A model generated the notes under the pieces. That model was not told where the DNA came from, ran no database searches, and saw only the letters and a list, made by a program, of their open reading frames with translations. A stretch of 63,642 bases of DNA, the filler included, from Nemertoderma westbladi (Eukaryota > Animalia > Xenacoelomorpha), in assembly GCA_032718475.1 (NCBI GenBank). It is 3 parts of 3 records of this genome, joined end to end, with 100 filler letters (N's around TTAATTAATTAA, not from the genome) between each part and the next. Parts side by side here need not be neighbours in the genome. Positions count along the whole stretch, not along the records: positions 25,495 to 55,308 come from JAUCBJ010007924.1; 2 more parts are not named here. One strand, given 5' to 3'. Positions 18,076 to 63,642 of this stretch are shown piece by piece (the stretch's first letter is position 1; every line of letters starts with the position of its first letter). A program made the position numbers and the translations under genes.

Positions 18076-18083
18076 ACTTTTGT

Positions 18084-21096: not shown

Positions 21097-21139
21097 TTTT
21101 ATTAGTGATCATATCATATTCATTGCGTTCTGGAATACA

Positions 21140-30806: not shown

Positions 30807-33800
30807 CCGGGGACTACTGTTGGGGTTGCTGTTTTCAGGGGGTGTACTGCCTGGTTGGCTGTTGTCCGGGGTTCTACTATCTGGGTGGCTGTTGTCCGGG
30901 GGTCTAATGTCTGGGTGGCTGTTGTCCGGGGGTCTAATGTCTGGTTGGCTGTTGTCCGGGGGTCTAATGTCTGGTTGGCTGTTGTCCGGGGGTCTAATGT
31001 CTGGTTGGCTGTTGTCCGGGGGTGTACTGTCTTGTTGGCTGTTGTCCGCAGGTCTAATGTCTGGTTGGCTGTTGTCTGGTGGTCTAATGTCTGGTTGGCT
31101 GTTGTCCGGGGGTCTACTTTCTGGGTGGCTGTTGTCCGGGGGTCAACTGTCTGGGTGGCTGTTGTCCGCAGGTCTAATGTCTGGTTGGCTGTTGTCTGGT
31201 GGTCTAATGTCTGGTTGGCTGTTGTCCGGGGGTCTACTTTCTGGGTGGCTGTTGTCCGGGGGTCAACTGTCTGGTTGGCTGTTGTCCGGGTCTACTATCT
31301 GGGTGGCTGTTGTCTCAGGGGGTCTAATGTCTGGTTGGCTGTTGTCCGGGGGTCTAATGTCTGGTTGGCTGTTGTCGGGGGGTCTAATGTCTCGTTGGCT
31401 GTTGTCCGGGAGTCTACTTTCTGGGTGGCTGTTGTCCGGGGGTCTACTGTCTGGGTGGCTGTTGTCCGGGGGTCTAATGTCTGGTTGGCTGTTGTCGGTT
31501 GGTCTAATGTCTGGTAGGCTGTTGTCCGGGGGTCTACTGTCTGGGTGGCTGTTGTCCGGGGGTCTAATGTCTGGTTGGCTGTTGTACGGGTCTACTATCT
31601 GGGTGGCTGTTGTCTCAGGGGGTCTAATGTCTGGTTGGCTGTTGTCCGGGGGTCTAATGTCTGGTTGGCTGTTGTAGGGGGGTCTAATGTCTCGTTGGCT
31701 GTTGTCCGGGAGTCTACTGTCTGGGTGGCTGTTGTCCGGGGGTCTACAGTCTGGGTGGCTGTTGTCCGGGGGTCTACTGTCTGGGTGGCTGTTGTCCGGG
31801 GGTATAATGTCTGGTTGGCTGTTGTCCGGGGGTCTAATGTCTGGTTAGCTGTTGTCAGGGGGTCTAATGTCTGGTTGGCTGTTGTTCGGGGGTGTAATGT
31901 CTGGTTGGCTGTTGTCTGGCGGTCTACTGTCTGAATGGCTGTTGTCCGGGGTTCTACTGTCTGGGTGGCTGTTGTCCGGGGGTCTACTGTCTGGGTGGCT
32001 GTTGTCCGGGGTCTACTGTCTGGGTGGCTGTTGTCCGGGGGTCTAATGTCTGGGTGGCTGTTATCCGGGGGTTTTTCTGTCTGGTTGGCTGTTGTCCGGG
32101 GGTCTAATGTCTGGTTGGCTGTTGTCCGGGGGTCTACTGTCTGGGTGGCTGTTGTCCGTGGGTCTAATGTCTGGTTGGCTGTTGTTCGGGGGTCTACTGT
32201 GGGGGTGGCTCTTTTCCGCTGGTCTACTGTCTGGGTGGCTGTTGTCCGGGGGTCTAATGTCTGGTTGGCTGTTGTCCGGGGGTCTACTGTCTGGGTGGCT
32301 GTTGTCCGTGGGTCTAATGTCTGGTTGGCTGTTGTTCGGGGGTCTACTGTGGGGGTGGCTCTTTTCCGCAGGTCTACTGTCTGGGTGGCTGTTGTCCGGG
32401 GGTCTAATGTCTGGTTGGCTGCTGTCCGGTTTTCTACTGTCTGGTTGGCTTTTGTCCGGGTGTCTAATGTCTGGTTGGCTGTTTTCCGGGGGTCTACTGT
32501 CTGGGTGTCTGTTGTCCGGGGGTCTAATGTCTGGTTGGCTGTTATCCGGTGGTCTACTGTCTGGGTAGCTGTTGTCCGGTGGTCTAATGTCTGGTTGGCT
32601 GTTGTCCGGGGGTCTAACATCTGGTTGGCTATTGTCCGGGGTCTATTGTCTGATTGGCAGCTGTCCGGGGGTCTAATGTCTGGTTGGCTGTTGTCCGGGG
32701 GTCTACTGTCTGGGTGGCTGTTGTCCGGGGGTCTACTGTCTGGGTGGCTGTTGTCCGAGGGTCTACTGTCTGGGTGGATGTTGTCCGGGGGTCTAATGTC
32801 TGGTTGGCTATTGTCCGGGACTCTACTGTCTGGGTGGCTTTTGTCCAGGGGTCTAATGTCTGGTTGGCTGTTGTCCGGGGGTCTACTGTCTGGGTGGCTG
32901 TTGTCTTGGGGTCTACTGTCTGGGTGGCTGTTGTCCGGGGGTCTAATGTCTGGTTGGCTGTTATCCGGAGATCTAATGTCTGGTTGGCTGTTGTCCGGGG
33001 GTCTAATGTCTGGTTGGCTGTTTTCCGGGGGTCACTGTCTGGTTGGCTGTTGTCCGGGGGTCTACTGTCTGGGTGGCTGTTGTCCGGGGGGGGGGGGGTC
33101 TAATGTCTGGTTGGCTGTGGTCCGGTGGTCTATTGTCTGGGTGGCTGTTGTCCGGGGGTCTAATGTCTGGTTGGCTGTTGTCCGGGGGTCTAATATCTGG
33201 TTGGCTGTTGTCCGGGGTCTAATTTCTGGTTGGCTGTTGTCCGGGGGTCTAATGTCTGGTTGACTGTTGTCCGGGGGTATACTGTCTGGGTGGCTGTTGT
33301 CCGGGGGTCTTCTGTCTGGGTGGCTGTTGTCCGGGGGTCTACTGTCTGGGTGGCTGTTGTCCGGGGGTATAATGTCTGGTTGGCTGTTGTTCGGGGGTCT
33401 AATGTCTGGTTGGCTGTTGTCTGGGGGTCTACTGTCTGGGTGGCTGTTGTCCGGGGGTCTACTGTCTGGGTGGCTGTTGTCCGGGGGTCTACTGTCTGGG
33501 TGGCTGTTGTCCGGGGGTCTACTGTATGGGTGGCTGTTATCCGAGGGTGTACTGTCTGGTTGGCTGTTGTCTTGGGGTCTAATGTCTGGTTGGCTGTTGT
33601 CCAGGTGGCTGTTGTTCATGGGTTAATGTCTGGTTGGCTGTTGTCCGGGGGTCTAGTGTATGGATGGCTGTTGTCCGGGGGTCTACTGTCTGGTTGGCTG
33701 TTGTCCGGGGGTCTACTGTCTGAGTGGCTGTTGTCAGGGGGTCTAATGTCTGGTTGGCTGTTGTCCGGGGGTCTACTGTCTGGGTGGCTTTTGTCCGGGG

Positions 33801-36800
33801 GTATAATGTCTGGTTGGCTGTTGTCCGGGGGTCTACAGTCTGGGTGGCTGTTGTCCTGGGGTGGACTGTTTGCGTGGTTGTTGTCCGGGGGTCTAATATC
33901 TGGTTGGCTGTTGTCCGGTGGTCTACTGTCTGGGTGGCTGTGGTCCGGGGGTCTAATGTCTGGTTGGCTGTTTTCCGGGGGTCTACTGTCTGGGTGGCTG
34001 TTGTCCGGGGGTCTGATGTCTGGGTGGCTGTTGTCCGGGGTCTACTGTCTGGGTGGTTGTTGTCCGGGGGTCTACTGTCTGGTTGGCTTTTGTCTGGGGG
34101 TCTACTGTCTGGGCTGCTGTTGTTCGGGGGTCTACTGTCTGGGTGACTGTTGTCCGGGGACTACTGTTGGGGTTGCTGTTTTCAGGGGGTGTACTGTCTG
34201 GTTGGCTGTTGTCCGGGGTTCTACTATCTGGGTGGCTGTTGTCCGGGGGTCTAATGTCTGGGTGGCTGTTGTCCGGGGGTCTAATGTCTGGTTGGCTGTT
34301 GTCCGGGGGTCTAATGTCTGGTTGGCTGTTGTCCGGGGGTCTAATATCTGGTTGGCTGTTGTCCGGGGGTGTACTGTCTTGTTGGCTGTTGTCCGCAGGT
34401 CTAATGTCTGGTTGGCTGTTGTCTGGTGGTCTAATGTCTGGTTGGCTGTTGTCCGGGGGTCTACTTTCTGGGTGGCTGTTGTCCGGGGGTCAACTGTCTG
34501 GGTGGCTGTTGTCCGCAGGTCTAATGTCTGGTTGGCTGTTGTCTGGTGGTCTAATGTCTGGTTGGCTGTTGTCCGGGGGTCTACTTTCTGGGTGGCTGTT
34601 GTCCGGGGGTCAACTGTCTGGTTGGCTGTTGTCCGGGTCTACTATCTGGGTGGCTGTTGTCTCAGGGGGTCTAATGTCTGGTTGGCTGTTGTCCGGGGGT
34701 CTAATGTCTGGTTGGCTGTTGTCGGGGGGTCTAATGTCTCGTTGGATATTGTCCGGGAGTCTACTTTCTGGGTGGCTGTTGTCCGGGGGTCTACTGTCTG
34801 GGTGGCTGTTGTCCGGGGGTCTAATGTCTGGTTGGCTGTTGTCGGTTGGTCTAATGTCTGGTAGGCTGTTGTCCGGGGGTCTACTGTCTGGGTGGCTGTT
34901 GTCCGGGGGTCTAATGTCTGGTTGGCTGTTGTACGGGTCTACTATCTGGGTGGCTGTTGTCTCAGGGGGTCTAATGTCTGGTTGGCTGTTGTCCGGGGGT
35001 CTAATGTCTGGTTGGCTGTTGTCGGGGGGTCTAATGTCTCGTTGGCTGTTGTCCGGGAGTCTACTGTCTGGGTGGCTGTTGTCCGGGGGTCTACAGTCTG
35101 GGTGGCTGTTGTCCGGGGGTCTACTGTCTGGGTGGCTGTTGTCCGGGGGTATAATGTCTGGTTGGCTGTTGTCCGGGGGTCTAATGTCTGGTTAGCTGTT
35201 GTCAGGGGGTCTAATGTCTGGTTGGCTGTTGTTCGGGGGTGTAATGTCTGGTTGGCTGTTGTCTGGCGGTCTACTGTCTGAATGGCTGTTGTCCGGGGTT
35301 CTACTGTCTGGGTGGCTGTTGTCCGGGGGTCTACTGTCTGGGTGGCTGTTGTCCGGGGTCTACTGTCTGGGTGGCTGTTGTCCGGGGGTCTAATGTCTGG
35401 GTGGCTGTTATCCGGGGGTTTTTCTGTCTGGTTGGCTGTTGTCCGGGGGTCTAATGTCTGGTTGGCTGTTGTCCGGGGGTCTACTGTCTGGGTGGCTGTT
35501 GTCCGTGGGTCTAATGTCTGGTTGGCTGTTGTTCGGGGGTCTACTGTGGGGGTGGCTCTTTTCCGCTGGTCTACTGTCTGGGTGGCTGTTGTCCGGGGGT
35601 CTAATGTCTGGTTGGCTGTTGTCCGGGGGTCTACTGTCTGGGTGGCTGTTGTCCGTGGGTCTAATGTCTGGTTGGCTGTTGTTCGGGGGTCTACTGTGGG
35701 GGTGGCTCTTTTCCGCAGGTCTACTGTCTGGGTGGCTGTTGTCCGGGGGTCTAATGTCTGGTTGGCTGCTGTCCGGTTTTCTACTGTCTGGTTGGCTTTT
35801 GTCCGGGTGTCTAATGTCTGGTTGGCTGTTTTCCGGGGGTCTACTGTCTGGGTGTCTGTTGTCCGGGGGTCTAATGTCTGGTTGGCTGTTATCCGGTGGT
35901 CTACTGTCTGGGTAGCTGTTGTCCGGGGGTCTAACATCTGGTTGGCTATTGTCCGGGGTCTATTGTCTGATTGGCAGTTGTCCGGGGGTCTAATGTCTGG
36001 TTGGCTGTTGTCCGGGGGTCTACTGTCTGGGTGGCTGTTGTCCGGGGGTCTACTGTCTGGGTGGCTGTTGTCCGAGGGTCTACTGTCTGGGTGGATGTTG
36101 TCCGGGGGTCTAATGTCTGGTTGGCTATTGTCCGGGACTCTACTGTCTGGGTGGCTTTTGTCCAGGGGTCTAATGTCTGGTTGGCTGTTGTCCGGGGGTC
36201 TACTGTTTGGGTGGCTGTTGTCTTGGGGTCTACTGTCTGGGTGGCTGTTGTCCGGGGGTCTAATGTCTGGTTGACTGTTGTCCAGGGGTCTACTATCTGG
36301 GTGGCTGTTATCCGGAGATCTAATGTCTGGTTGGCTGTTGTCCGGGGGTCTAATGTCTGGTTGGCTGTTTTCCGGGGGTCTACTGTCTGGTTGGCTGTTG
36401 TCCGGGGGTCTACTGTCTGGGTGGCTGTTGTCCGGGGGTCTAATGTCTGGTTGGCTGTGGTCCGGTGGTCTATTGTCTGGGTGGCTGTTGTCCGGGGGTC
36501 TAATGTCTGGTTGGCTGTTGTCCGGGGGTCTAATATCTGGTTGGCTGTTGTCCGGGGTCTAATTTCTGGTTGGCTGTTGTCCGGGGGTCTAATGTCTGGT
36601 TGACTGTTGTCCGGGGGTATACTGTCTGGGTGGCTGTTGTCCGGGGGTCTACTGTCTGGGTGGCTGTTGTCCGGGGGTCTACTGTCTGGGTGGCTGTTGT
36701 CCGGGGGTATAATGTCTGGTTGGCTGTTTTTCGGGGGTCTAATGTCTGGTTGGCTGTTGTCTGGGGGTCTACTGTCTGGGTGGCTGTTGTTCGGGGGTCT

Positions 36801-37450
36801 ACTGTCTGGGTGGCTGTTGTCCGGGGGTCTACTGTCTGGGTGGCTGTTGTCCGGGGGTCTACTGTATGGGTGGCTGTTATCCGGGGGTGTACTGTCTGGT
36901 TGGCTGTTGTCTTGGGGTCTAATGTCTGGTTGGCTGTTGTCCGGGTGGCTGTTGTTCGGGGGTTAATGTCTGGTTGGCTGTTGTCCGGGGGTCTAGTGTC
37001 TGGATGGCTGTTGTCCGGGGGTCTACTGTCTGGTTGGCTGTTGTCCGGGGGTCTACTGTCTGAGTGGCTGTTGTCAGGGGGTCTAATGTCTGGTTGGCTG
37101 TTGTCCGGGAGTCTACTGTCTGGGTGGCTTTTGTCCGGGGGTATAATGTCTGGTTGGCTGTTGTCCGGGGGTCTACAGTCTGGGTGGCTGTTGTCCTGGG
37201 GTCGACTGTTTGCGTGGTTGTTGTCCGGGGGTCTAATATCTGGTTGGCTGTTGTCCGGGGGTCTACTGTCTGGGTGGCTGTGGTCCGGGGGTCTAATGTC
37301 TGGTTGGCTGTTTTCCGGGGGTCTACTGTCTGGGTGGCTGTTGTCCGGGGGTCTGATGTCTGGGTGGCTGTTGTCCGGGGTCTACTGTCTGGGTGGTTGT
37401 TGTCCGGGGGTCTACTGTCTGGTTGGCTTTTGTCCGGGGGTCTACTGTCT
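30807..37450. repeat. G/T-rich minisatellite, 30-bp unit (GGTCTAMTGTCTGGKTGGCTGTTGTCCGGG), about 220 copies, as a duplicated ~3.35-kb block
   Basis: Variant units recur at a 3347-bp offset (e.g. 31545/34892, 31935/35282). Confidence 0.97.
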
Positions 37451-37737
37451 GTCTACTATGGAATTCTCCACGTTCCATTATAATTGTCAATTAAGCTTCT
37501 TGCATATATAATTGGACAATTAATTATATTATCTGAAATCTAGGCATAGGATTCTTACTCATTGCTGGACCACCCAGTTATGATCAGCAAAATATTATTA
37601 TTGCACATATTAAAGTATAAAATAGGTAAATATGAACTGCATTAATCGGCCTCTATTTGTTTATTCGGCCGACGATTTTATTTTAATTTTGCTAAATAAA
37701 TAGATATCTATATCTATATGTTATTACCAAGAAAAAT

Positions 37738-40954: not shown

Positions 40955-43900
40955 ATACTACTACTAGGTTCGGCATGCTGCATTGCAGCTGCATTTTTAA
41001 GAATGCTGTGCCGGCTTGTCGACAAAATTGCGCCGCCACAACTCCCTATCACCCATGACATTTGCAAGGTCTTCCGCATCTTCCAGGCCAGTGTCCTTTA
41101 AGATGCGTCTCAAGAAAGTCATGGGCTGTCCACCATGCTTATTCACTCCATGAGGCTGCCAAAGTACAAGATTATGCACTGGCTGGTCCTCACGGCGAAA
41201 GCAATGTCCTGCAAAGCGGAGGCGATTTTGTTCTAGTGTCAAGCTTGGGGGAACCAATGAGACACCTCCAATGTTATATAGTGTCTGGTTGGAGATGTGT
41301 GCATTGTACTTGACACAATGAACCCGGCGTAGCATTCTTGTGAATGTGCCATCCAGAGATTTGGTGTCCTCAGCAGTTAGAGCCCAGCATGGACTTCCAT
41401 AGAGGAGTACTGGAACTACTGCTGCTCTAAATAACCGGACCTTAAGTTTTCGATTAATTCTCGGTGACTTCCAAATCCTGGAAAGCCTATTCAAGGCTGC
41501 CCATGCCTTTCCCTTACGTATTCGAAGGTCCTCACCTGCTTTCCGGATCCATGATCCCAGGTAACAGAAGTCATCCACATGCTCAAGCATACCATATTTT
41601 GAGCTTATGCTCATCCGATCAGAGACTTGCTGAGGACTTTCAAAGTTAAGTGTCAAAATTTTAGTCTTTCTGGAGTTAATAAAAAGACCAACACTAGAAG
41701 CAGCATGTTCTAATGAGCTGAGGAGCCGTTGGGCTCCCTCTAGTGATTCTGAGAGTTCTCCTAAGTCATCAGCAATGTCTAGATCAGTTAGGTACTTGGC
41801 AGGATTTCCTCGACTTCTGAAGCCAGAAGGTGGAGTTATCATCACCCCATCATCATTATGATGATCTAAGGACATGCGTAGAACATAGTCAACAACAATT
41901 ATGAACAAGAATGGTGCAAGTGTGTCTCCCTGGAGGACGCCCCATAACACTTCAAATGGTTCTGTGTCACCGTCAACAGTAGACACAAATGTTGTCGAAC
42001 CATCGTATACTGATCTGATTGCTGCAATAATTTCATCAGGAATCCCATATAATGAAAGTATGCTGAACATACGTGAGCGAGAGACTGAATCAAAGGCCTT
42101 GGAGAAGTCAACAAAGATAACAGCCAGATGCCTGTCTTTCTTTTTTGATAACTCTTCAATTATCCTTCTAAGTGCCAAAATGGGCTCCATGGTCCCACGA
42201 CCTTTACGGAACCCATTCTGATTTCCACGGAGCAGTCTCTCAATGGGATCCCTGATGCGATTTAATAGAATTCTATTGTATAGCTTTGCAGCAAACGAGA
42301 TCAATGAGATTCCCCGAAAAGAACCATAGAGTGTTAGGTTGCCCTTCTTGGGAACTGGTACCAACTTATTTGTTTTCATTTCTTGTGGGACTCTTGTTGT
42401 ACGGTACATGGCTACTATGATGGGATAGATGAGCTTTAAACACTCAGGTATTTTAAAGACCTCAGGGGGAACACCATCTACTCCACTGGCACGATTGGTC
42501 TTAATGCTCTTTGCAGCAGCCTTCACTTCTGCAAAGGAGATATCACCAATGGGAATATCTGGGAGTACAGACACAGACACTTTTACTTCTATAAAGTTAT
42601 CAGGCAATACCCTGTCATTATTGAGGAGCTTTTCAAAGTGGGCCTTCCAACCATTGAGGCGATCGGCTGGTGATTCAGCCTTAACCTTGGTGGTTGGTTG
42701 GCTTTTTCGACCAGCAAGCAAGTTGATCGATCTCCATGCCTGGGATGATTGCCTGCTGTCGTCAGCATCATTGATAGCATCAACCTGTTGGTTTATTAGC
42801 TCCTGTAAATTAACAGAGTACTGCCTGTTCAGGGACCTAGATGCAGCCTTAACTGCATTCTTGGCCGCTGTAGTCTGTTTGAGTCGGGACTCTTTCTGCG
42901 CCTTGTAGAGGTCATTTCGGCATTTCTGAATTTGGTTGTCAGTCCAGGGGGCCCGTTTCCTGTTTCGATGGTATACAGGAACTGTTTCTGCAGCTGCTAA
43001 CTTAACTGCCTCTGTGAAGGCAGTATAACCCTCACAGTGATCTGCCGCCTCAGAGGCAAGAACATCATACCTGTTGCTCAGCTGTAGTGTGAAGCTTGGC
43101 TGTTGCAACAGAGAGGACCAGTCATGCCGCGGCAAGGCAGATTTCGTTGTTCTGCTAGCACGCAGACTAAGTCTCACCTTGGCCACAATTAGGCGGTGAT
43201 CACTGGAGAAGGTGTAGAGGATCGTAGTGTAAATGCATTACAATCTTGTATAGAGCTCCTGTATTTCCTACGAAACAGGATATGGTCTATCTGGGACTTG
43301 TGACCACTGGGTCCACTATGAGTCCATAACTTTCCAGTTCGCTTCTTGAACTAGGTTCCCGCCGAAAACAATCCATTTCCAGAGATAAAATCCTGAAGAT
43401 GGACGGAATTTCGGTTAACACTATTGCTATAGACCCAGGGCGATGTAGGTGATTGATGCAGACTTGCATTAAAGTCTCTCAGGAATGTTAAGAATGCATG
43501 CTGATCCACTCCATCAGTAGCTGCTTGTAGATTCTGGTAGAAATTTTCCACCTCCTCTACAGGGGCAACACTAGTTGCAGAGTAGCACACAATCAGAACC
43601 ACCTTAGGAAACTTCTTAGCCAGTCTTCCAGAACATGAGAAGTGGCAACGGATGATGCGGTTAGAGATTTGGTCTATTTTGTCCAATGCTGCATGTGCAG
43701 TTGGATTCATCAATAGACCAATTCCAGCATTGCCACTTTCATCTGCTGAAGCGAGGGCGAGTCGCCAACCGCCCCCCATGCCCTTAATCAAAACCTCATC
43801 AGTCTGTCCAGACTGTCGGTGCTCTTGAACACCCATTGCACTAAGAGATAGCTTATCTGCCAAGGCAGTCAGCTCACCTTGTCGCATTGGGGACCCGAGT

Positions 43901-44370
43901 GTTAGGGCGTTTACTGAGGCTAGTCTAGTGACTTGCCTCAGATTCACCAATGGCTTTGTTGGTCGGGGTGGAACATGAGAGTAGCCTCCAAATCCAGAAT
44001 CCCTCTCCCCCTCACAATCTGGCCTCCCTGGTGACCCAGGGCTTGGGCCAGAAAGGTCATCAGGAAAGGGACTCAAAAAATTGTTTGCCGCTCTCTCTCC
44101 AGTAGGGGGTGAGACAGGCAGCCGGTCAGGAGATAACTGACGCCTGTGAGGCCGATTGTGTCCAGTCATTCCACTGGCCTCTAGTGGCTGGACCTCCGCA
44201 TTACTAATGTAATCCATAGTGGGGGTTGGGGGGTGCTTTTTTTGCCGAGTCAGCTCTCGGGGCAAATACCACACCCTGGTTTGCCATTCCACAGGGTGGG
44301 TGTCGCAGTGGAGTCAGATATGAGGCCCATCACCCATATCTACTCTCGCGCACATGACCCACATGACTCT
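40955..44370 (-). mobile_element. Near full-length RTE-clade LINE (single APE+RT ORF), inactivated
   Basis: APE motifs (VNALTL, GVQEHR, RDFNA, QIDHIL, SDHRL) and RT motifs (QNGFRKGR, FVDFSKAFDS, GVLQGDTLAP, DIADD, FCYLGS); (TAG)n tail at 40955-40966; in-frame TAG at 43353-43351 and a frameshift near 43215-43235. Confidence 0.93.
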
Positions 44371-47460: not shown

Positions 47461-48872
47461 ACCTACCTATAACGTCCTCATGGCCTCCCATCTGTTCTCT
47501 CAATATTATAATTATATATATTATATTTCGCCTTGTGACAGACTTGGTTGTGTCAGACTGGATAATTGCAGACCGATCGGCATCATAACTAATAAATAGA
47601 TAATGGTCTAGTGCATATCCGACAAATTTCAGTTTGAATTTGAACTGATTAAAAACAAAGAAATTGAAAGATGTTTGTTTGACATTTGGCTCTCTAGCAA
47701 GAGACTGTTGAACTCCCGATATCTGTCAAAATTATAAGTTTTTATTATTGATGTCTACAAATTTTAACTCGACAGCTCTAATTGACTCACAACTATATGA
47801 CACCCTTACTATGTCGCTTGTCCACCACTTCTGCTATTGCTTACTACATACACATGGATGCCTTTCTATTCAATGCTACAGTATGTTGTACAATGCCATG
47901 GTTATTACCTCCCCACATCATGAGGTGCCAGTATACAGACAGTGTTCTTCAGGGAGGGATATTAATCCCAATTTCTGTATTGTGATGGACTATATGTTCT
48001 TCAGACTTACTCAAACATCCATAGTTTAGATGGGGTCGAGATTGGGATATAATAGGTTATAATTTAATAAACGGGATGGGATATTCTAAACAAAACAGTA
48101 AACAAAAAAGTTGCGAGTTGCGACCACTTTAGTGTTGGAGAGGAACTGGTTGTTATGTTACCCAACACCTTTGTGGCCCTACATACAGTACTTACAAGGC
48201 GAAATGCATGGTGACCAATCGGTTCAACCCTGTTAGTATGGGGCTATAAAATGTACAAATACCGGGGGGGGGGGGGGGTTATATTGACCCCCCCCCCCCC
48301 CCCGCCCTCTAAAATCTATACATTTTAACACAAACGTCTGATTTTTTGTTTGTATGTAGATTTCACTAGTCTGAATCCGATTGACAAAAATTCTAAAAAC
48401 TTTACAAGGGTTGTAATTTTGCAGCACAAAAATTTCAAGTAGTGAACAATTTTCACAAAATTTGAAAGTTTCAATTTTCATATAATATTTTTTCAATACT
48501 GGTTTTCCGGTACGTAACATCCATTGGAAAATATTTATAAATGATCTGATTACTATAAAGGGCAATTTTAGTTGTCTGCATATGAAAAAACGGAAACAAA
48601 CAAGCAACCAGCACTTATAGTGATTAACCCCTGTACAATGGATTAACAATATAATATAATACGTTTACTGTATGCAATAGTAGAGAATTTGAAAATTAGA
48701 GAACGTGATCTTGCCTTTGTTTGGTCACGAGGCTCTATTGCTACCTTGACTTTGTTAGATAGTAATTCCTTATTGGTAGGTGATAATTGATGTCGTTAAA
48801 TGGCTGATGGCTAATAGGGATAATAGTTTCGGAGGAGGTGGCGAAGTGCATATATGGATAATGTTATGATGA

Positions 48873-49102
48873 TTTTGTTCAGAAATGGAAAAAATGAGAA
48901 AGCGTGTCACCGGGGGTTGAACCAGCGCTATACGTACGTTTCAGCCAATCAGGCCGCACCAGTAGGTGGGATAGTGAAAGTCAGGGACAAGTGGGTGAAC
49001 TGGTTAGCGCTACTGATGAGGCATGATAAGCTGAAACGTATGTATAGCGCTGGTTCAACCCCCGGTGACGCGCTTTCTCATTTTTTCCATTTCTGAACAA
49101 AA
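48873..49102. repeat. Fold-back inverted repeat (arms 48873-48965 and 49010-49102)
   Basis: The outer ~73 bp of the arms are near-perfect reverse complements (two mismatches seen); the inner 20 bp are degenerate. Confidence 0.93.
48996..49057 (+). ncRNA. Minimal type I hammerhead ribozyme
   Basis: Stem I TAGCGCTA/TAGCGCTG; CTGATGA 49013-49019; stem II GGC-atgataa-GCT; GAAA 49033-49036; short stem III AC-gtat-GT; GUA cleavage triplet ending at 49044. Confidence 0.8.
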
Positions 49103-51018
49103 CCACAATATTACATCTCAGCTCAACTCAAATTCATTTATAGGGATAATCTCGTAAAACGCCTAATTCAGAAAAAATTCAGAAAAAACGCCTAATTCAG
49201 AAAACACCTATTCGGGGAAAAAAATAAATTACATGTGGCGCCAATCACCCATAGTAAGAATCTCCTATTAATTTGAGGTGAAAGTGATCAAATAATATTG
49301 TGACTTAATTTCTGTTAAGCCGAATGTTGTAAGCTGAAAATTAACATCATTGTTACTTAATAATAGAATAGCTAGCTCAATGAAATATTGAGAATTCTGT
49401 ATGAGACATGTTGACGCCATGTTTATTGGACTACTGCTCTGTGTTTAGGGATACAATATCCTATTTAGTTAAGCGTTACATCAATTTTTATTAAATTACT
49501 CGCTCCTGTAATTGCTCTACATTTGTGTCAGTAGAATTCTAGGATTGGTTTTATTTTAAACGCCTTTCATGCGTTATTGTGTGGCAGATGGCTCTATGTT
49601 TCACCATTGAGCAACCTTCTGGGTGTGTAACCAAATACATGTGTTAAGCAATCGTTCTATTATGTAAGTAATGTAATTGAGGCAATTAGAATGGCATAAA
49701 AAAGGAGCAGTTAGCAATTTTAAAATTATTAATTCCTAGAAATTCAATAACAAAGGATTATATTGTTCGAGGAATATATTCGTTTTTTTCCTCCCATATC
49801 CATTTTTTCGATTTTTATTGCTTTTTGTATTTTGAGTGTGTGATACTCTTTAATTAAATAAAATGAAAATAAAAAAAGCCAGTAACAATGAACTATTATG
49901 AGACACTGCACCCAACCAAGTGAATTTAATGCTGTGTATTTTACTGTAGTAAACAAAATAATACTTGTTAATAAGCAATTATAATAGTAGGAATTCTTCT
50001 CCAGGGCACCACGACCATTTAAAATATAATATCGTTCTCTAATAAAACCACATAAGTCGGTCGTTAAAAAGTTACTGACTACTACTCAACTACAACAGAT
50101 GGAATGTACTCAGCTAATTTCTCTATCAAGAAAGTGTCACACACATAGTTTTAAAGGATTAAAGGCGGGTAGCGGATCTGTGGGTGGTCAAAACTGAGTT
50201 TATTGCCATTATTTCGGCCAAAACGTGAAATTATATTGAAACAAACCGGCCTTTAAAAGAGCAGCTCGGTAAAGCCTAACTACTGAAAAACTAAAACTCT
50301 ATTCAATATAACAACACTACTGGGTAAGGAACTACCTCCTATCTGCACGAATCTGGATCGAACTTAACCGAACTTGATCGAAAAGCGGCGAACTCGTTCC
50401 AGGTGAAAATATATATTGAATTTATATCAGACTTTTCTTACATTTTAAATTTAGTTGCATTTAATAATATTTTATTAAATTACAAAATTAAATTACTTAC
50501 TTCCCATAGAATAACATTGCTTAAACCAGTAAACCGGTCTCCGTATTACGACTATAGATTGCTTGTTTAATAATAAAAGAAATTTATTTTGAAATTGCAC
50601 ATTTAGTTTAAAAAAAATAACAATGTAAATTAAAGTATAAGAATTCAGAGGTGGCAATCTCGGTGGGCGAGGGGTAGATGGCACACGATAAATGCGCGGT
50701 TGAGTCTTATCTGGTCCTCACATGTCATGCAAAGTGAAGGCAATGGGTGGGCATTTCCACCAACGTCCAACACACTGCCGGTGGTTGATCTATCTTTACT
50801 AAACACAAATAATAATATGAGTCCAAAGCAACATTCGTATTGAACTGATTTTGTTGATTGATTTGGTGTATGAAACTTGTATTTTTTATAACATAACAAC
50901 GAGATAAGGATAGATGCAACCACCAGTCATGAAGTGAAATGAAGAGACAAATTATTTACACTGAGTAGTGCTACAAAATTACAATATGCAGTTAGTTCAA
51001 CTCCAACCATAGCATAGC

Positions 51019-54000
51019 TGTGTATAGCACCACAATTCACTTCACAGCTCTGTATAGTACCATCATTCACTCACTGTATAACACCATCATTCACAAACTG
51101 TATAGCACCATCATTCACTCACTGTATAGCACCATCATTCACTCACTGTATAGCACAATCATTCACAAACTGCATGGCACTATCATTCACAAACTGTATA
51201 GCATCATCATCCACTCACTGTATAGCACCATCATTCACAAACTGTATAGCATCATCATTCACAAACTGTATAGCACCATCAATCACAAACTGTATAGCAC
51301 CATCATTCACAAACTGTATAGCAACATCATTCACAAACTGTATAGTATCATCATTCACAAACTGCATATCACCATCATTCACAAACTGTATAGTATCATC
51401 ATTCACAAACTGTATAGCATCATCATCCACTCACTGTATAGTATCATCATTCACAAACTGTATAGCACCATCATTCACAAACTGTATAGCACCATCATTT
51501 ACAAACTGTATGGCACCATCATTCACAAACTGTATAGCACCATCATTCACAAACTGTATAGCAACATCATTCACAAACTGTATAGTATCATCATTCACAA
51601 ACTGCATATCACCATCATTCTTAAACTGTATAGCACCATCATTCACAAACTGTATAGCAACATCATTCACAAACTGTATAGTATCATCATTCACAAACTG
51701 TATAGCACCATCATTCACAAACTGTATAGCACCATCAATCACAAACTGTATAGCACCATCATTCACAAACTGTATAGCACCGTCAATCACAAACTGTATA
51801 GCACCATCATTTACAAACTGTATAGCACCATCATTCACAAACTGTATAGCACCATCAATCACAAACTGTATAGCACCATCATTCACAAACTGTATAGCAC
51901 CGTCAATCACAAACTGTATAGCACCATCATTTACAAACTGTATGGCACCATCATTCACAAACTGTATAGCACCACCATTCACTCACTGTATGGCACCATC
52001 ATTCACAAACTGTATAGCATCATCATCCACTCACTGTATAGTATCATCATTCACAAACTGTATAGCACCATCATTCACAAACTGTATAGCACCATCATTC
52101 ACAAACTGTATAGCAACATCATTCACAAACTGTATAGTATCATCATTCACAAACTGTATAGCACCATCATTCACAAACTGTATAGCACCATCAATCACAA
52201 ACTGTATAGCACCATCATTCACAAACTGTATAGCACCGTCAATCACAAACTGTATAGCACCATCATTTACAAACTGTATGGCACCATCATTCACAAACTG
52301 TATAGCACCACCATTCACTCACTGTATAGCACCATCATTCACAAACTGTATAGCACCGTCAATCACAAACTGTATAGCACCATCATTCACAAACTGTATA
52401 GCACCATCATTTACAAACTGTATAGCACCGTCAATCACAACACTCTATAGCACGTGATTATTATATAACACCATTATTCAGTCACTGTATAGCGCCATCA
52501 TTCACTCAATGTATAGCACCGTCATCCACTTAATGTATAGCACCATCATTCACAAACTATATAGCACCATCATTCACAAACTGTATAGTATCATCATTCA
52601 CAAACTGTATAGCACCATCATTCACAAACTGTATAGCACCATCAATCACAAACTGTATAGCACCATCATTCACAAACTGTATAGCACCGTCAATCACAAA
52701 CTGTATAGCACCATCATTTACAAACTGTATGGCACCATCATTCACAAACTGTATAGCAACATCATTCACAAACTGTATAGTATCATCATTCACAAACTGT
52801 ATAGCACCATCATTCACAAACTGTATAGCACCATCAATCACAAACTGTATAGCACCATCATTCACAAACTGTATAGCACCGTCAATCACAAACTGTATAG
52901 CACCATCATTTACAAACTGTATAGCACCATCATTCACAAACTGTATAGCACCATCAATCACAAACTGTATAGCACCATCATTCACAAACTGTATAGCACC
53001 GTCAATCACAAACTGTATAGCACCATCATTTACAAACTGTATGGCACCATCATTCACAAACTGTATAGCACCACCATTCACTCACTGTATAGCACCATCA
53101 TTCACAAACTGTATAGCACCGTCAATCACAAACTGTATAGCACCATCATTCACAAACTGTATAGCACCATCATTTACAAACTGTATAGCACCGTCAATCA
53201 CAACACTCTATAGCACGTGATTATTATATAACACCATTATTCAGTCACTGTATAGCGCCATCATTCACTCAATGTATAGCACCGTCATCCACTTAATGTA
53301 TAGCACCATCATTCACAAACTATATAGCACCATCATTCACAAACTGTATAGCACCATCATTCACAAACTATATAGCACCGTCATTCACAAACTGTATAAC
53401 ACCATCATTCACTCACTGTATAGCACCATCATCTACTCACTGTATAGCACCATCATTCACAAACTGTATAGCACCATCATTCACAAACTGTATAGCACCA
53501 TCATTCACAAACTGTATAGCACCATCATTCACAAACTGTATAGCACCGTCATTCACAAACTGTATAACACCATCATTCACTCACTGTATAGCACCATCAT
53601 CCACTCACTGTGTAGTATAGCACCATCATTCACAAACTGTATAGCACCATCATTCACAAACTGTATAGCACCGTCATTCACAAACTGTATAGCACCGTCA
53701 ATCACAGCACTCTATAGCACGTGATTATTATATAACACCATCATTCACAAACTGTATAGCACCATCATTCACAAACTGTATAGCCCCATCATTTACAAAC
53801 TGTATATCACCATCATTCACAAACTGTATAGCACCATATTCACAAACTGTATGGCACCATCATTCACAACCTGTATAGCACCATCATTCACAAACAGTAT
53901 AGCACCATCATTCACAAACTGTATAGCACCATCATTCATAAACTGTCACAAAGTGTCATTCACAAACTGTATAGCACCACCATTCACTCACTGTATAGCA

Positions 54001-54177
54001 CCATCATTCACAACCTGTATAGCACCTTCATTCACAAACTGTATAGCACCATCATTCGCAAACTGTATAGCACCATCATTCATAAACTGTCACAAAGTGT
54101 CATTCACAAACTGTATAGCACCATTATTCACAACCTGTATAGCACCATCATTCATAAACTGTATAGCACCATCATTC
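51019..54177. repeat. Minisatellite, 24-bp unit (CTGTATAGCACCATCATTCACAAA), about 130 copies
   Basis: Visible array; the interruption CTCTATAGCACGTGATTATTATATAACACC recurs at about 52443, 53206 and 53710. Confidence 0.97.
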
Positions 54178-56444: not shown

Positions 56445-57630
56445 AGGTTTATTCTAGATTCAGATAAAAAAGACACATCTATGTGTACCGCATCTTCTAC
56501 ATCAGTCAACCCGACTCATATCTATCCGCAGTAGATTCATATAGTCTGCTGAGCGAAATGATGTGGAGAAAAAATATTAGTTATGAAGATGATTGAAGAT
56601 TAAGAAGATGAAAAGTAATTTTAGGTTTATGTGATTGAAGAAAGTAACTGGTTTTTAAATTTTTTAGTGAAACTAGATTTGGACTTACAATTTTTTATAT
56701 TTAACGGTATGTTGTTCCATATAAGAGGACCTTGAAAGCTCATGGATTGTTGTGACGACGTTAGACGACAAGTTTGTATATAGAAGTCCCCACGGGTAGC
56801 AGAGCGAGTAGGGTATTTATGTACTGTAGACGTTTTCCTAAATAAATCTTGTATTGTAGTAGGTAAATGATTAGTAGTGGAGTTTACGTCGTACATAAGT
56901 AGACCTACTTGATATTTATATAGTAAGTCCAGTGGAAGTATAGATAGAGATTTGTAGATAGGATTAGAAGAGGCCTGGTAGTGATTGAATGTGATACATC
57001 TAACTATTTTATTTATTTTAATTCGTAGAGGTTTCAGAGTACTAGAATGGGTAGAACCCCATAGTGAGATACCGTATGAGAGGTAGGGATGTATAAGTGA
57101 GTAATAGAGCTGTCTGAGAATTCGAAGTGGGAATATGTGGCGTAGCTTATAGAAGATACCAGCAGATTTGGATATCTTAGTTTTAATATAGTCAATATGA
57201 GTTTTCCAATTTAATTTGTTATCCACATATACCCCTAAGAATTTAGTGCTAGCCGTTGTGTTGATTTTATTATTATTTATTTTCAGTGAGGGTAAGCCAG
57301 TAGTATGCTGCAGTATGTTAGAGAATAGAGTAGCTTCTGTTTTTTTTAGATTTAGAGATAGACGGTTGTCTATTAGCCAGTCAGCAATTTTGTCAAGTTC
57401 TAGGTTAATGTTGTTTGTTAGATCAGTTAGGTTACTGCCTGATTGGAATAGAGTAGTATCATCAGCGAATAGCGTAGCTAGTAAGGTAGTAGCGTTAGGC
57501 AGGTCATTAATATACAGTAGGAATAGAAGAGGAGAAAGAACTCCGCCCTGGGGCAAGCCACATACTAGGGGCAGCAGAGATGATGAGCAAGAGTCTATAG
57601 TAACATATTGCTGTCTGTGTGCTAAAAAAC
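56445..57630 (-). mobile_element. 5'-truncated CR1/L2-group LINE (C-terminal half of RT plus 3' UTR)
   Basis: GLPQGGVLSPLLFLLYINDL, LFADDT, KFLGV, LYYSLIHPYLSYG, GPLIWN; frame intact to stop at 56627; AATAAA at the 3' end. Confidence 0.92.
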
Positions 57631-57704
57631 TTTCCTTCGTCGTCGGAGCCCCGGTTCACTTGAATCACCGCGCGCATTTCCCCCCGTCATCTTTGGAGCA
57701 TTTT

Positions 57705-58046: not shown

Positions 58047-58373
58047 TCCAATAATAAATGGAAACTTAATTAACCTAAAGGAGCCACCGTAGTTTAACTT
58101 TATATAATTTTGTTAGCGCTTTAGTGATATCCGCGAAACACAAAAAAGTTTAAAGAATCGTTGCGGCCTATAAAACGGATCGCTGCAAAGTAGCCTTATT
58201 AATAACTTAAAACAATAAACTACTAGAACGCCTCTCGAGTATTCTACATCTCCCTAGCGTGGTAACAGCCATTGTATGCTAAGTGTAAAATTGTTTACTA
58301 TACAGTTGTTGTAGTAAATGCATAAAAAATGGCAAAATGAACAATCCCTCTGAATTGAAATAATGCGTATTCA

Positions 58374-60785
58374 TAATACGGAATGTCCGAGATTAGAGCC
58401 AATTAAATTGAATCTAATAATGCGGAATGTCCGAGATTAGAGCCAAATACATTGAATGTAATAATGCGGAATGTCCGAGATTAGAGCCAAATACATTGAA
58501 TATAATAATGCGGAATGTCCGAGATTAGAGCCAAATACATTGAATGTAATAATACGGAATGTCCGAGATTAGAGCCAATTAAATTGAATCTAATAATGCG
58601 GAATGTCCGAGATTAGAGCCAAATACATTGAATGTAATAATGCGGAATGTCCGAGATTAGAGCCAAATACATTGAATATAATAATGCGGAATGTCCGAGA
58701 TTAGAGCCAAATACATTGAATGTAATAATGCGGAATGTCCGAGATTAGAGCCAAATACATTGAATGTAATAATGCGGAATGTCCGAGATTAGAGCCAAAT
58801 ACATTGAATGTAATATTGCGGAATGTCCGAGATTAGAGCCAAATACATTGAATCTAATAATGCGGAATGTCCGAGGTTAGAGCCAAATACATTGAATGTA
58901 ATAATACGGAATGTCCGAGATTAGAGCCAAATACATTGAATGTAATAATGCGGAATGTCCGAGATTAGAGCCAAATACATTGAATGTAATAATGCGGAAG
59001 CTCCGAGATTAGAACCAAATACATTGAATTAATAATGCGGAATGTCCTAGATTAGAGCCAAATACATTGAATGTAATAATGCGGAATGTCCGAGATTAGA
59101 GCCAAATACATTGAATGTAATAATGCGGAATGTCCGAGATTAGAGCCAAATACATTGAATGTAATAATGCGGAATCTCCGAGATTAGAACCAAATACATT
59201 GAATTAATAATGCGGAATGTCCGAGATTAAAGTCAAATACATTGAATGTAATAATGCGGAATGTCCGAGATTAGTGCCAAATACATTGAATGTAATAATG
59301 CGGAATGTCCGAGATTGGAGCTAAATACATTGAATGTAATAATGTGGAATGTCAAAGATTAGAGCCAAATACATTGAATGTAATAATGCGGAATCTCCGA
59401 GATTTGAACCAAATACATTGAATTAATAATGCGGAATGTCCGAGATTAGAGCCAAATACATTGAATGTAATAATGCAGAATGTCCGAGATTAGAGCCAAA
59501 TACATTGAATGTAATAATGCGGAATGTCCGAGATTAGAGCCAAATACATTGAATGTAATAATGCGGAATGTCCGAGATTAGAGCCAAATACATTAAATGT
59601 AATAATGCGGAATGTCCGAGATTAGAGCCAAATACATTGAATGTAATAATGCGTAATGTCCGAGATTAGAGCCAAATACATTGAATTAATAATGCAGAAT
59701 GTCCGAGATTAGAGCTAAATACATTGAATGTAATAATGGGGAATGTCAAAGATTAGAGCCAAATACATTGAATGTAATAATGCGGAATGTCCGAGATTAG
59801 AGCCGAATACATTGAATGTAATAATGCGGAATGTCCGAGATTAGAGCCAAATACATTGAATGTAATAATGCGGAATTTCCGAGATTAGAGCAAATACATT
59901 GAATGTAATAATGCGGAATGTCCGAGATTAGAGCCTAATAGATTGAATGTAATAATGCGGAATGTCCGAGATTAGAGCCAAATACATTGAATGTAATAAT
60001 GCGGAATGTCCGAGATTGGAGCTAAATACATTGAATGTAATAATGTGGAATGTCAAAGATTAGAGCCAAATACATTGAATGTAATAATGCGGAATCTCCG
60101 AGATTTGAACCAAATACATTGAATTAATAATGCGGAATGTCCGAGATTAGAGCCAAATACATTGAATGTAATAATGCAGAATGTCCGAGATTAGAGCCAA
60201 ATACATTGAATGTAATAATGCGGAATGTCCGAGATTAGAGCCAAATACATTGAATGTAATAATGCGGAATGTCCGAGATTAGAGCCAAATACATTAAATG
60301 TAATAATGCGGAATGTCCGAGATTAGAGCCAAATACATTGAATGTAATAATGCGTAATGTCCGAGATTAGAGACAAATACATTGAATTAATAATGCAGAA
60401 TGTCCGAGATTAGAGCTAAATACATTGAATGTAATAAAGGGGAATGTCAAAGATTAGAGCCAAATACATTGAATGTAATAATGCGGAATGTCCGAGATTA
60501 GAGCCGAATACATTGAATGTAATAATGCGGAATGTCCGAGATTAGAGCCAAATACATTGAATGTAATAATGCGGAATGTCCGAGATTAGATCAAATACAT
60601 TGAATGTAATAATGCGGAATGTCCGAGATTAGAGCCTAATAGATTGAATGTAATAATGCGGAATGTCCGAGATTAGAGCCAAATACATTGAATGTAATAA
60701 TGCGGAATGTCCGAGATTAGAGCAAATACATTGAATGTAATAATGCGGAATGTCCGAGGTTAGAGCCAAATACATTGAATGTAAT
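58374..60785. repeat. Minisatellite, 44-bp unit (TAATGCGGAATGTCCGAGATTAGAGCCAAATACATTGAATGTAA), about 55 copies
   Basis: Visible array; variant units recur at a ~701-bp offset (59311/60012). Confidence 0.97.
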
Positions 60786-60914: not shown

Positions 60915-62979
60915 GTGAGTAGATATATAACCATAGAGAATAACAAAAGTAAGTCTATATAACAAAATGAGTAACTATAACCTAAATATATTCGTATATA
61001 ATATAAACAAACTGCGTTGATATAACCTAATGGAGTAGATATAACTAAAGGAAGAAGATATGCCTAACGGAGTAGATATAACCAGAGTTAGTAGATATAA
61101 CTAAAGGAAGAAGATATGCCTAACGGAGTATATATAACCAGAGTTAGTAGATATAACTAAAGGAAGAAGATATGCCTAACGGAGTAGATATAACCAGAGT
61201 TAGTAGATATAACCAGAGTTAGTAGATATAACTAAAGGAAGAAGATATGCCTAACGGAGTAGATATAACCAGAGTTAGTAGATATAACCAGAGTTAGTAG
61301 ATATAACTAAAGTAAGAAGATATACCTAAATGGAGTAGATATAACTAAAGGGAGTAGATGTAACCAGAGTTAGTAGATATAACTAAAGGAAGATGATATG
61401 CCTAACGAAGTAGATATAACCAGAGTTAGTAGATATAACTAAAGTAAGAAGACATACTTAAATGGAGTAGATATAACTAAAGGGATTAGATGTAACCAGA
61501 GTAAGTAGATATAACTAAAGGAAGAAGATATGCCTAACGGAGTAGATATAACCAAAGTTAGTAGATATAACTTAAGGAAGAAGATATACCTAAATGAAGT
61601 AGATATAACTAAAGTAAGAAGATACACCTAAATGAAGTAGATATAACTAAAGTAAGAAGATATACCTAAATGAAGTAGATATAACTAAAGTAAGAAGATA
61701 TACCTAAATGAAGTAGATATAACTAAAGTAAGAAGCTATACGTAAATGAAGTTAGTAGATATAACGAAAGGGGGTAGATATAACCAAAGTTTGTAGATAT
61801 AACCAAAGTTAGTAGGTATAACAAAAGTCAGTAGATATAACTAAAGTAAGAAGATATACCTAAATGAAGTAGATATAACTAAAGTAAGAAGATATACCTA
61901 AATGAAGTAGATATAACTAAAGTAAGAAGATATACCTAAATGAAGTAGATATAACTAAAGTAAGAAGATATACGTAAATGAAGTTAGTAGATATAACGAA
62001 AGGGAGTAGATATAACCAAAGTTTGTAGATATAACCAAAGTTAGTAGGTATAACAAAAGTTAGTAGATATAACTAAAGTAAGAAGATATACCTAAATGAA
62101 GTAGATATAACTAAAGTAAGAAGATATACCTAAATGAAGTAGATATAACTAAAGTAAGAAGATATACCTAAATGAAGTAGATATAACTAAAGTAAGAAGA
62201 TATACGTAAATGAAGTTAGTAGATATAACGAAAGGGGGTAGATATAACCAAAGTTAGTAGGTATAACAAAAGTTAGTAGATATAACTAAAGTAAGAAGAT
62301 ATACCTAAATGAAGTAGATATAACTAAAGTAAGAAGATATACCTAAATGAAGTAGATATAACTAAAGTTTTAGTAGATATAACCAAAGTTCGTAGATATA
62401 ACCAAAGTTCGTAGATATAACCAAAGTTCGTAGATATAACCAAAGGAAGAAGATATACCTTAATGGAGTAGATATAACTAAAGGGAGTAGATATAACCAG
62501 AGTTAGTAGATATAACTAAAGGAAGAAGATATGCCTAACGGAGTAGATATAACCAGAGTTAGTAGATATAACCAGAGTTAGTAGATATAACTAAAGGAAG
62601 AAGATATGCCTAACGGAGTAGATATAACCAGAGTTAGTAGATATAACTAAAGGAAGAAGATATACCTAAATGAAGTAGATATAACTAAAGTAAGAAGATA
62701 TACCTAAATGAAGTAGATATAACTAAAGTAAGAAGATATACCTAAATGAAGTAGATATAACTAAAGTTAGTAGATATAACCAAAGTTCGTAGATATAACC
62801 AAAGTTCGTAGATATAACCAAAGTTAGTAGATATAACCAAAGTTAGTAGATATAACTAAAGTAAGAAGATATACCTAAATGAAGTAGATATAACTAAAGT
62901 AAGAAGATATACCTAAATGAAGTAGATATAACTAAAGTAAGAAGATATACCTAAATGAAGTAGATATAACTAAAGTAAG
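60915..62979. repeat. Complex satellite built from AGATATAACYAAAGT(T/A)AG and AGATATACCTAAATGAAGT subunits
   Basis: Visible mosaic of ~18-20-bp subunits. Confidence 0.93.
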
Positions 62980-62991: not shown

Positions 62992-63642
62992 CCGGAACGA
63001 CGTTTTACGTGGCGTATTCATAATTACGGGATTAATAAAGGCAAGGCTCTTAAGAAAATTAAAGATGTCTCCTTCCTCAAAGGAGATAAAACCGGTAACA
63101 TTATTCTACTAGATACCGCCGATAAACACTTTGAAATCCTAAGGATCCTCAGCGACACTACAACCTACGAACAACTAACTAAAGATCCAACCGCCCGCTT
63201 CCGTGTCAAATGTCGAGCCCTCCTACGTGAACTGTCGTTACGCAACCCCGAACTCCAAACGCACCTATTTCCCAATACTTTTACCACAGGCCACATTTTT
63301 ATCTCCCTCAAAGATCACAAACCCAAAGAGGAATGGATCCAACACCCAAACGGTAAACTAATCCCTAAAGGCCGACCAATTATATCCAATACTGACGCCT
63401 TTTTCTCACCACTTTCTAAATTGATGCATTTCTACTTACACCCTCTAGTCACTAACTCGTCCAATTATCTTTGTAGTTCATTACATTTAAAACACACAAT
63501 GCCTACCCACCTTAATAACTCATCATGTACTCTCATCACAGTAGATGTAGTCGATATGTTTACTAGTATTCCACACGAGCTCGGGTTACAAGCCACTATG
63601 CAAACACTTACCGAAGACCCATCCCTGCCACACCGGTCTATA
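62992..63642 (+). mobile_element. Penelope-like element reverse transcriptase (5'-truncated, runs off the window)
   Basis: Open frame not in the ORF track: KGDKTGNIILLD (DKG motif), TYEQLTKDPT, LKDHK, GRPIIS, LITVDVVDMFTSIPH. Confidence 0.88.

Follow-up and report, generated by a model that had tools for sequence, protein, structure and literature searches.

A decayed head-to-head pair of repeat copies in Nemertoderma westbladi, probably inserted by Penelope-like machinery, with a predicted dimer-type hammerhead in a likely tRNA-derived frame

Introduction

The repeated appearance of hammerhead ribozymes in unrelated mobile RNAs, and the identity of what transcribes ribozyme-bearing repeats, are open questions. 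Both are touched by a locus of Nemertoderma westbladi in which one short stretch of DNA resembles a hammerhead and a tRNA gene at the same time, and lies next to an inverted, mutated version of itself. What is this element, how did the two copies come to face each other, and what does the tRNA likeness represent? A first-pass annotation read the locus as a Pol III-driven, ribozyme-bearing SINE or retrozyme family, possibly mobilised by a Penelope reverse transcriptase, with an inverted arm that could silence it. Here, we address these questions in the window (the whole stretch of DNA that was analysed, 63,642 nt in length) and in contigs of four DNA runs (X1-X4), of which 1047, 1257, 1851 and 74, respectively, aligned to the right arm of the locus. 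Three DNA runs contain at least 64% of the words.

Results

A hammerhead in a high-copy repeat family

Membership in the hammerhead class was judged by a CUGANGA plus GAAA core, an NUH site and helices I-III, and the type I descriptor specified at least 6, 3 and 2 bp for helices I, II and III, respectively. The right copy is the sole match to this descriptor in the window, and none of 200 shuffled windows matches (Table 1), which bears out the annotated core with its 2-bp stem III. An Infernal scan had been suggested as a check; the Rfam search returned no hammerhead family here at gathering score or at E<=10. Its miRNA matches at the locus are driven by the hairpin described below, and were rejected.

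Table 1. Coordinates, strands and properties of features at the locus, and of the Penelope-like reading frame at the end of the window.
Feature	Position	Strand	Remarks
Type I hammerhead	48996..49057	+	Descriptor match; predicted cut 49044/49045
Helix I, distal	48996-49000/49053-57	+	5 bp
UGGU bulge of helix I	49001-04	+	Between the 8-bp and 5-bp parts
Helix I, proximal	49005-12/49045-52	+	8 bp
Core CUGAUGA	49013-19	+	
Helix II	49020-32	+	3 bp in the window copy
GAAA	49033-36	+	
Helix III	49036-43	+	2 bp in the window copy; GUA then predicted cleavage after 49044
Stem-loop II plus GAAA	49020..49036	+	In register with tRNA-Asn(GUU) positions 30-44, suggestive only
Segment likely derived from a tRNA D arm (tRNA 8-25)	48992..49010	+	A box 48992-49003; 2/4 D-stem pairs kept
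Segment likely derived from a tRNA T arm	49049..49062	+	Exact B box 49052-62; 3/5 T-stem pairs kept
T6 run, candidate Pol III terminator	49081..49086	+	19 nt past the B box
AC-rich 3' end	49096..49118	+	Ragged; clusters 49100-49105 and 49115-49118; outer part in right copy only
Forward 5'-truncated copy of the high-copy family	48963..49118	+	Runs to about 49115-49118; X4 contig covers 48965-49118
Inverted 5'-truncated second copy	48870..48965	-	Equivalent to 49010-49105; without A box; hammerhead predicted dead in cis
Mutated core CUGGUGC of left copy	48956..48962	-	Family: no change >=4% at equivalent 49016, <0.2% at 49019 in X1-X3
Perfect palindrome ACGTACGT (helix III) of left copy	48932..48939	-	Family-majority state
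TAG at inversion junction	48963..48965	.	In both copies; 3-nt microhomology; single-copy; arm identity stops at the equivalent of 49010
Penelope-like RT ORF, N-terminal part, cut by window end	62992..63642	+	1347 relatives

The right copy belongs to an abundant family. Summed contig depth peaks at 176,595 in X1 versus 37 in the flank (a peak to single-copy ratio of 4734), and since overlapping contigs inflate depth up to about 31-fold, the copy number is at least ~150 (4734/31) and at most a few thousand. A change at 4% or more in any run occurs at 22 positions, and none of these lies in 49013-18 or 49042-44; positions 49019 and 49035 vary by less than 1% in X1-X3 and by 9% and 6% in X4 (two contigs and one contig, respectively), with the reservation that contigs with core changes may align less readily. 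The copies in X1-X4 thus keep the CUGAUGA/GAAA core, as the annotation had anticipated. Where variation does occur, it is often of a conservative type: 49032 varies between C and T only (G-C or G.U), keeping the first pair of helix II, and 48999 varies between A and G only, keeping both the A-box purine and a distal helix I pair. A third position, 49026, varies between A and T in the helix II loop.

In the family majority, helix II is 4 bp long with a loop of 5 nt and the ACGUACGU palindrome is perfect, a state from which the window copy has drifted. It differs from 98-99% of the family depth at 48995, 49023, 49029 and 49041, except that in X4 the majority is 90% at 49041 and 83% at 49029. Two of these changes break the fourth helix II pair and one introduces G.U pairs in the dimer helix, for which the 8-bp intermolecular helix III duplex has a computed energy of -9.8 kcal/mol in the majority sequence versus -6.2 kcal/mol in the window. 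Short palindromic helices III in the canonical metazoan type I architecture are described as working as dimers (PMC4209133), and the family-majority ribozyme, as predicted from its sequence, is of this architecture and of the dimer type. The palindromic helix III that had been annotated in the left arm is the state of the family majority.

Family depth climbs from 5' to 3'. At 48972-79 the window departs from the sequence of other copies; this clips alignments at 48980 and blurs the 5' ends of most copies. This copy extends at least 22 nt, and others at least 52 nt, upstream of the tRNA +1 position (loose end at 48963, 8 X2 contigs), and copies run ~30 nt beyond the T6 run. Depth steps at the cut site were left out of consideration, as they are distorted by the window mismatches at 49023, 49029 and 49041 and by overlapping contigs. 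Of 13 joints listed, nine are other opposite-strand joints, with differing breakpoints and low, single-locus depth. No head-to-tail joint at high depth is among those listed, although the contigs are short and rare arrays could escape, and the window holds no tandem repeats with a hammerhead in each unit; a tandem retrozyme arrangement, for which a copy search had been proposed, did not emerge. Short go-back joints do occur near 49033-49086 in X1-X3 (for example 49071 to 49033, 49070 to 49033 and 49059 to 49042), at single-locus depth; these mark other loci at which the 3' half is in part repeated in tandem. Exact-pattern scans yielded 0 family copies in metagenome contigs and 0 in viral contigs, and BLAST against phages gave 48 chance-level records, with none on a tRNA among the 30 listed.

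The tRNA-like frame

The boxes were first scanned for with a standard A/B-box pattern. In the family majority, both boxes match it with 0 mismatches, in tRNA order and 49 nt apart; the window has one private mismatch in the A box, where 99% of the depth has C at 48995. The majority boxes also fit the consensus TRGYNNARNNG and GGTTCRANYCY and the spacing of 30-60 nt given in PMC12498455. The T6 run downstream has no substitution at 4% or more, and the chance of a run of at least six T residues in a 25-nt span is about 0.02.

The likeness extends beyond the boxes, as seen with D- and T-arm profiles built from 605 usable of 748 unique viral-contig tRNAs, a set apart from the host's own tRNAs. The best D arm in the profile search lies at 48992 and the best T arm at 49049. 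Together they score 26.2 bits in the majority and 22.5 in the window, where real (viral-contig) tRNAs have a lower quartile of 25.7 and a median of 31.3. On the same reference, the D arm scores 12.5 bits (8.9 in the window; real-tRNA median 11.4) and the T arm 13.7 bits (real-tRNA 5th and 25th percentiles 11.3 and 17.3). Shuffled sequences never reached 26.2 bits (0/2000, maximum 9.2), and a null that keeps the ribozyme and the helix I complementarity also gave 0/2000, with a maximum of 20.8 versus 22.5 and 26.2. The A- and B-box-like segments overlapping stem I, which the annotation had pointed out, belong to a tRNA-like frame that is stronger than it had seen.

This frame is not that of a functional tRNA. 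Its cloverleaf is lost (two of four D-stem and three of five T-stem pairs), four outer pairs remain (48980-83/49066-69), and neither Rfam nor ARAGORN calls a tRNA at the locus. [quoted passage not shown] Judged by its sequence, the tRNA-like frame is genuine and likely descends from a tRNA gene.

Resemblance to tRNA-Asn(GUU)

Which tRNA this may have been was approached with a reference set from phages, giant viruses and prokaryotes, rather than the host's own; 998 of 1035 unique tRNAs were scored, many of them chosen beforehand for matching a D-arm/T-loop pattern taken from the window. Over the whole frame, the four best matches among the 998 are Asn(GUU) genes, found on contigs whose names denote giant-virus MAGs; animal tRNA-Asn presumably has the same arms. 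The unaltered window is colinear with these genes, with two insertions of 7 and 8 nt. Over tRNA 8-25 the identity is 15/19 for the window and 16/19 for the majority, including seven bases outside the A box, and the T arm contains a 10-nt exact match. Among tRNAs matching the D-arm/T-loop pattern, Asn accounts for 5 of 79 unique viral and 2 of 51 prokaryote sequences, and Ile for 46 of the 79 viral ones.

The likeness of the region between the arms is less certain. For the variant with T at 49026 and C at 49032, stem-loop II plus GAAA agrees with tRNA 30-44 at 14 of 15 positions if two inserted bases are allowed for, and its loop is U-GUU-A; this variant is one chosen among five, and its two letters may be unlinked. 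GAAA occurs at 41-44 in 12 of the 1035 tRNAs, five of which are of the Asn(GUU) class, while CUGAUGA has no tRNA counterpart. When stem-loop II was randomised, 22-47 of 3000 sequences reached the score of that variant, 124-266 of 3000 that of the window, and 476-923 of 3000 that of the strict majority, whose best match is Ile(GAU). The helix II-Asn match therefore has p of about 0.01-0.3, depending on the variant, and is not significant when the register is left free (297 and 206 of 2000).

The fold-back and its origin

The locus contains a 101-nt inverted repeat (48865-48965/49010-49110; 90% complementary, 44-nt spacer), and the + strand over it folds into a single hairpin of -167.6 kcal/mol (z = -19). 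The spacer is only apparent: the forward copy begins within it, at 48963, as shown by other family copies that continue at least 30 nt further upstream (loose end, 8 contigs, X2). The left arm is an inverted second copy with core CUGGUGC and a perfect palindrome, just as first annotated. Its 3' end (loose end at 48869) coincides with the common family end cluster at 49100-49105, the first of two; the right copy ends in the second, at 49115-49118. Depth at the inversion junction is that of single-copy DNA (42 at 48947-60 versus 37 in the flanks), compared with up to 176,595 for the family. The flanks have no TSD and the locus no poly(A) tail. An assembly artefact was considered and rejected: there are 7 differences between the arms in 90 positions, X1 contigs agree fully with the window at both flank junctions, and the inversion junction is itself covered by an X2 contig.

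Both ribozymes at the locus have decayed. The left copy fails the type I descriptor through A6G, A9C and a helix I of 3 bp, which is all it retains because it is truncated at the junction. It has four private changes relative to the family majority (the core A6G and A9C, 49028 and 49070), and the right copy has three in the shared span plus the A-box change. The locus is probably a relic, with the left ribozyme truncated and mutated and the right ribozyme and A box weakened. The arm differences are unevenly distributed, five of the seven lying in the innermost 17 of 90 nt (49016-49029 and 48946-48959; P = 0.002), and the outer two being CpG transitions. Across 48947-49050, an X2 contig has 7 differences in 104 letters, versus 9 of 657 in the flank. 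Either hypermutability of the hairpin tip or selection against both ribozymes may lie behind this.

With ribozyme helices enforced, the read-through RNA folds at -111.1 kcal/mol versus -167.6, so in this model such an RNA would bury the ribozyme, while a Pol III RNA starting near 48980-85, downstream of the left arm, would escape burial. The left arm could thus mask the ribozyme in read-through transcripts only, since it lies upstream of the predicted Pol III start. Of the suggestion that the inverted arm could act as a silencer, this much stands; the fold-back is a by-product of insertion at one locus, probably ordinary debris of the Penelope type, and not a module of the family.

The arrangement has the features described for insertions of EN+ Penelope-like elements (PLEs): an inverted copy at the 5' end, 5' truncation, two 3'-end clusters and no TSD, with nine other opposite-strand joints elsewhere. 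PLE insertions are reported to carry an inverted 5'-truncated copy at their 5' end and a tail at one end only (PMC8557442), and PLEs to have dual hammerheads on opposite strands (PMC4209133); the anole PLE protein is reported to nick and extend both strands, and to start at two sites in an AC-rich loop (PMC11167929). Two of the nine other inverted copies begin at 49045, the first base past the cut (p about 0.006 if starts were uniform), a weak hint of in vivo cleavage that helix I fold-back or clipping would also explain.

Surroundings in the window

A Penelope-like RT ORF begins at 62992; among 15 long homologs scanned, 12 have RVT_1 and four a C-terminal GIY-YIG domain. It lies 14 kb away and has no sequence match to the element within the window, and is thus evidence that this genome contains PLEs and of nothing beyond that. 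Accordingly, the Penelope mobilisation proposed at the outset agrees with the insertion pattern and with the nature of this ORF, and lacks a sequence link in the window. No full-length copy or partner ORF was seen in cis, with only 30 nt visible upstream of 48963.

The period-19 array that precedes this ORF (61034-62979) is one of six long minisatellite arrays, the others being at 2927-5678 (period 38), 18079-21104 (43), 30809-37451 (30), 51050-54177 (24) and 58373-60785 (44). Directly left of the element, at 48310-48580, is another repeat of high copy number that is unrelated to it (summed depth up to 2e5, with 80-90% likeness among many copies), and 48247-48327 holds an inverted G-run/C-run pair, 16 nt each and 7-10 nt apart, with weakly complementary AT-rich flanks. 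Two further RT ORFs, both on the - strand and likely LINEs, are found at 40997-43237 (RVT_1 and DUF6451) and 56627-57655 (RVT_1); upstream of the former is a 320-aa ORF without a Pfam match (43351-44313, -). The window also contains a 180-aa open frame with a GNAT acetyltransferase match (21452-21994, +) and an intronless cytoplasmic methionyl-tRNA synthetase ORF (11333-14029, +) with a GST-like N terminus and a WHEP domain, which is GC-rich relative to its surroundings and at most 51% identical to the 120 relatives listed, the named ones all being metazoan.

Discussion

Origin and mobility of the element

Taken together, these results make it probable that two decayed, 5'-truncated copies of an abundant repeat lie head to head here, likely inserted by a PLE, and that the 3' part of the repeat is a predicted dimer-type hammerhead within a likely tRNA-derived frame. 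The insertion could have arisen when each of the two nicked target strands served as a primer for reverse transcription from the AC-rich 3' end (at ~49105 and ~49115-18) and both cDNAs stopped early, to be joined through TAG; alternatively, one cDNA folding back on itself would give the same TAG junction. The annotation had a Pol III transcript as the mobile RNA, which does not agree with copies that run ~30 nt past T6 and in some cases start at least 52 nt before tRNA +1. As copies reach past both ends of the Pol III unit, the mobile RNA would instead be a longer transcript, either the terminal repeat of a PLE or a derivative that is non-autonomous. A PLE enzyme would reverse-transcribe this RNA, beginning at the AC-rich 3' end, and would usually leave the copy truncated. 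The ribozyme may process long precursors, a second copy being needed to form helix III through the palindrome. Intact masters might also yield a ~105-nt Pol III RNA, from the A/B boxes to T6, that folds helices I and II and could act as the partner enabling lone ribozymes to cut.

A more specific history is possible, and we offer it tentatively. The hammerhead may have been built from tRNA-Asn(GUU), with the anticodon stem-loop becoming helix II, the adjacent GAAA the second core box, and the D- and T-arm strands helix I, while CUGAUGA and the palindrome came from ~15 inserted bases. With its Pol III boxes and terminator retained, the RNA would have been taken up by Penelope machinery, and short Pol III copies would serve as dimer partners for lone ribozymes.

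Alternative explanations

Several other readings account for part of these observations. It is unlikely, in our view, that the family is a Pol III SINE/retrozyme of the Sm-alpha kind, in which tandem masters are read through T6 and self-cleaved monomers or circles are the transposition intermediate. The perfect, well-spaced boxes of the family majority would suit such an element, as would a depth ramp at 48980-49012, expected from a common 5' end near tRNA +1, and the two inverted copies that start at 49045; monomers are, moreover, described as common in retrozyme families (bioRxiv 10.64898/2026.07.22.740005). However, no high-depth head-to-tail joint is among those listed, the loose ends on the 3' side vary for the most part (agreement 0.43-0.81), the copied unit includes T6, and the 49045 starts are explicable by helix I fold-back or by clipping beside the window mismatch at 49041. 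Considerably less probable is an ordinary tRNA-derived SINE with an incidental hammerhead, mobilised by a LINE. Two LINE-type RT ORFs are present in the window and 5' truncation occurs with LINEs too, but the element shows neither a TSD at this locus nor a LINE-type A-rich or simple-repeat tail after the terminator, where a ragged AC-rich end lies ~30 nt beyond T6, and none of the LINE 3' regions in the window matches it. Both arms, furthermore, bear the 3' end, an outcome that LINE twin priming on a single RNA is not known to produce, and nine other junctions are likewise tail-out.

Equally improbable is that the tRNA likeness arose by chance, the element being an ordinary hammerhead of a PLE terminal repeat in which the strands of helix I happen to resemble A and B boxes. 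Three A-box positions are fitted by the complement of the B-box core alone, the boxes pair together in the absence of a cloverleaf or a tRNA call, and the finding was chosen out of very many windows. Nonetheless, the null that retains both ribozyme and complementarity never reached the score, and there is the 16/19 identity over tRNA 8-25, with its seven bases outside the A box, together with the 10-nt exact T-arm match. The slimmest prospect of all, and one largely refuted, is that the 240-nt fold-back is itself the unit, as a MITE or a designed antisense ribozyme silencer. Its 101-nt terminal inverted repeats and the energy gap between the read-through hairpin and the enforced ribozyme fold would be in keeping with this, but the junction is single-copy, junctions differ at other loci and there is no TSD; many whole inverted units with TSDs, as a MITE would have, were not found. 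A PLE-inserted pair of truncated copies is thus the reading we retain.

Relationship to known systems

The part of this locus that merits attention is not the fold-back but the ribozyme nested in a tRNA frame, in which one ~100-nt stretch is predicted to act at the DNA level as a Pol III promoter and at the RNA level as a ribozyme scaffold. The element's parent may be an identifiable tRNA, and should a colinear match to the host's tRNA-Asn hold true, this would be a traceable origin of a natural ribozyme from a housekeeping RNA. A natural hammerhead between A and B boxes was not found in a literature search that covered mainly open sources. A preprint proposes that the viroid hammerhead core mimics an anticodon loop (10.1101/2022.01.19.477025); as described there, this concerns a different site, and mimicry rather than descent.

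Among systems that combine a ribozyme or a Pol III promoter with a repeat, schistosome Sm-alpha/Sj-alpha elements likewise unite a tRNA-derived Pol III promoter and a type I hammerhead (PMC6765202, PMC2770079). The annotation had drawn this parallel, which does not extend to the layout: Sm-alpha is described as promoter followed by ribozyme (PMC6765202), whereas here the boxes enclose the ribozyme, their strands make up helix I, and cleavage would part A from B. Sm-alpha is also linked to tRNA-Gln (PMC2770079), while the best match here is Asn(GUU). The TRIMp3 elements Helenus and Cassandra are similar in being non-autonomous retroelements whose terminal repeat contains a Pol III promoter derived from a small RNA, but are described as LTR elements with PBS/PPT and without a ribozyme (PMC10886601).

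The closest relationships are with PLEs and the retrozymes thought to depend on them. The pLTR hammerheads of EN+ PLEs are also of type I, near the 3' end and with a palindromic helix III (PMC4209133), and their insertions show the same 5' truncation, inverted truncated 5' copy, one-end tail, AC-rich 3' end and lack of TSD (PMC8557442, PMC11167929). The PLE ribozyme is of the minimal type, in contrast to the canonical one found here with its 4-bp helix II and long, bulged helix I, which is set inside a tRNA-like A/B frame with no ORF seen in cis. Animal non-LTR retrozymes are, like this element, non-coding and high-copy, have a canonical type I hammerhead of the dimer type, and are proposed to be mobilised by PLEs (PMC7229834; bioRxiv 10.64898/2026.07.22.740005). 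They are defined by tandem repeats and circular RNA, whereas the present element is known from DNA contigs with no tandem joint listed, and tRNA boxes are not among the features reported for them in the same two accounts. Most likely, then, the element works like a PLE terminal repeat or a PLE-dependent retrozyme; its fold-back and PLE-type insertion are of a known kind, and what appears to be new is the nesting of the ribozyme in the tRNA frame.
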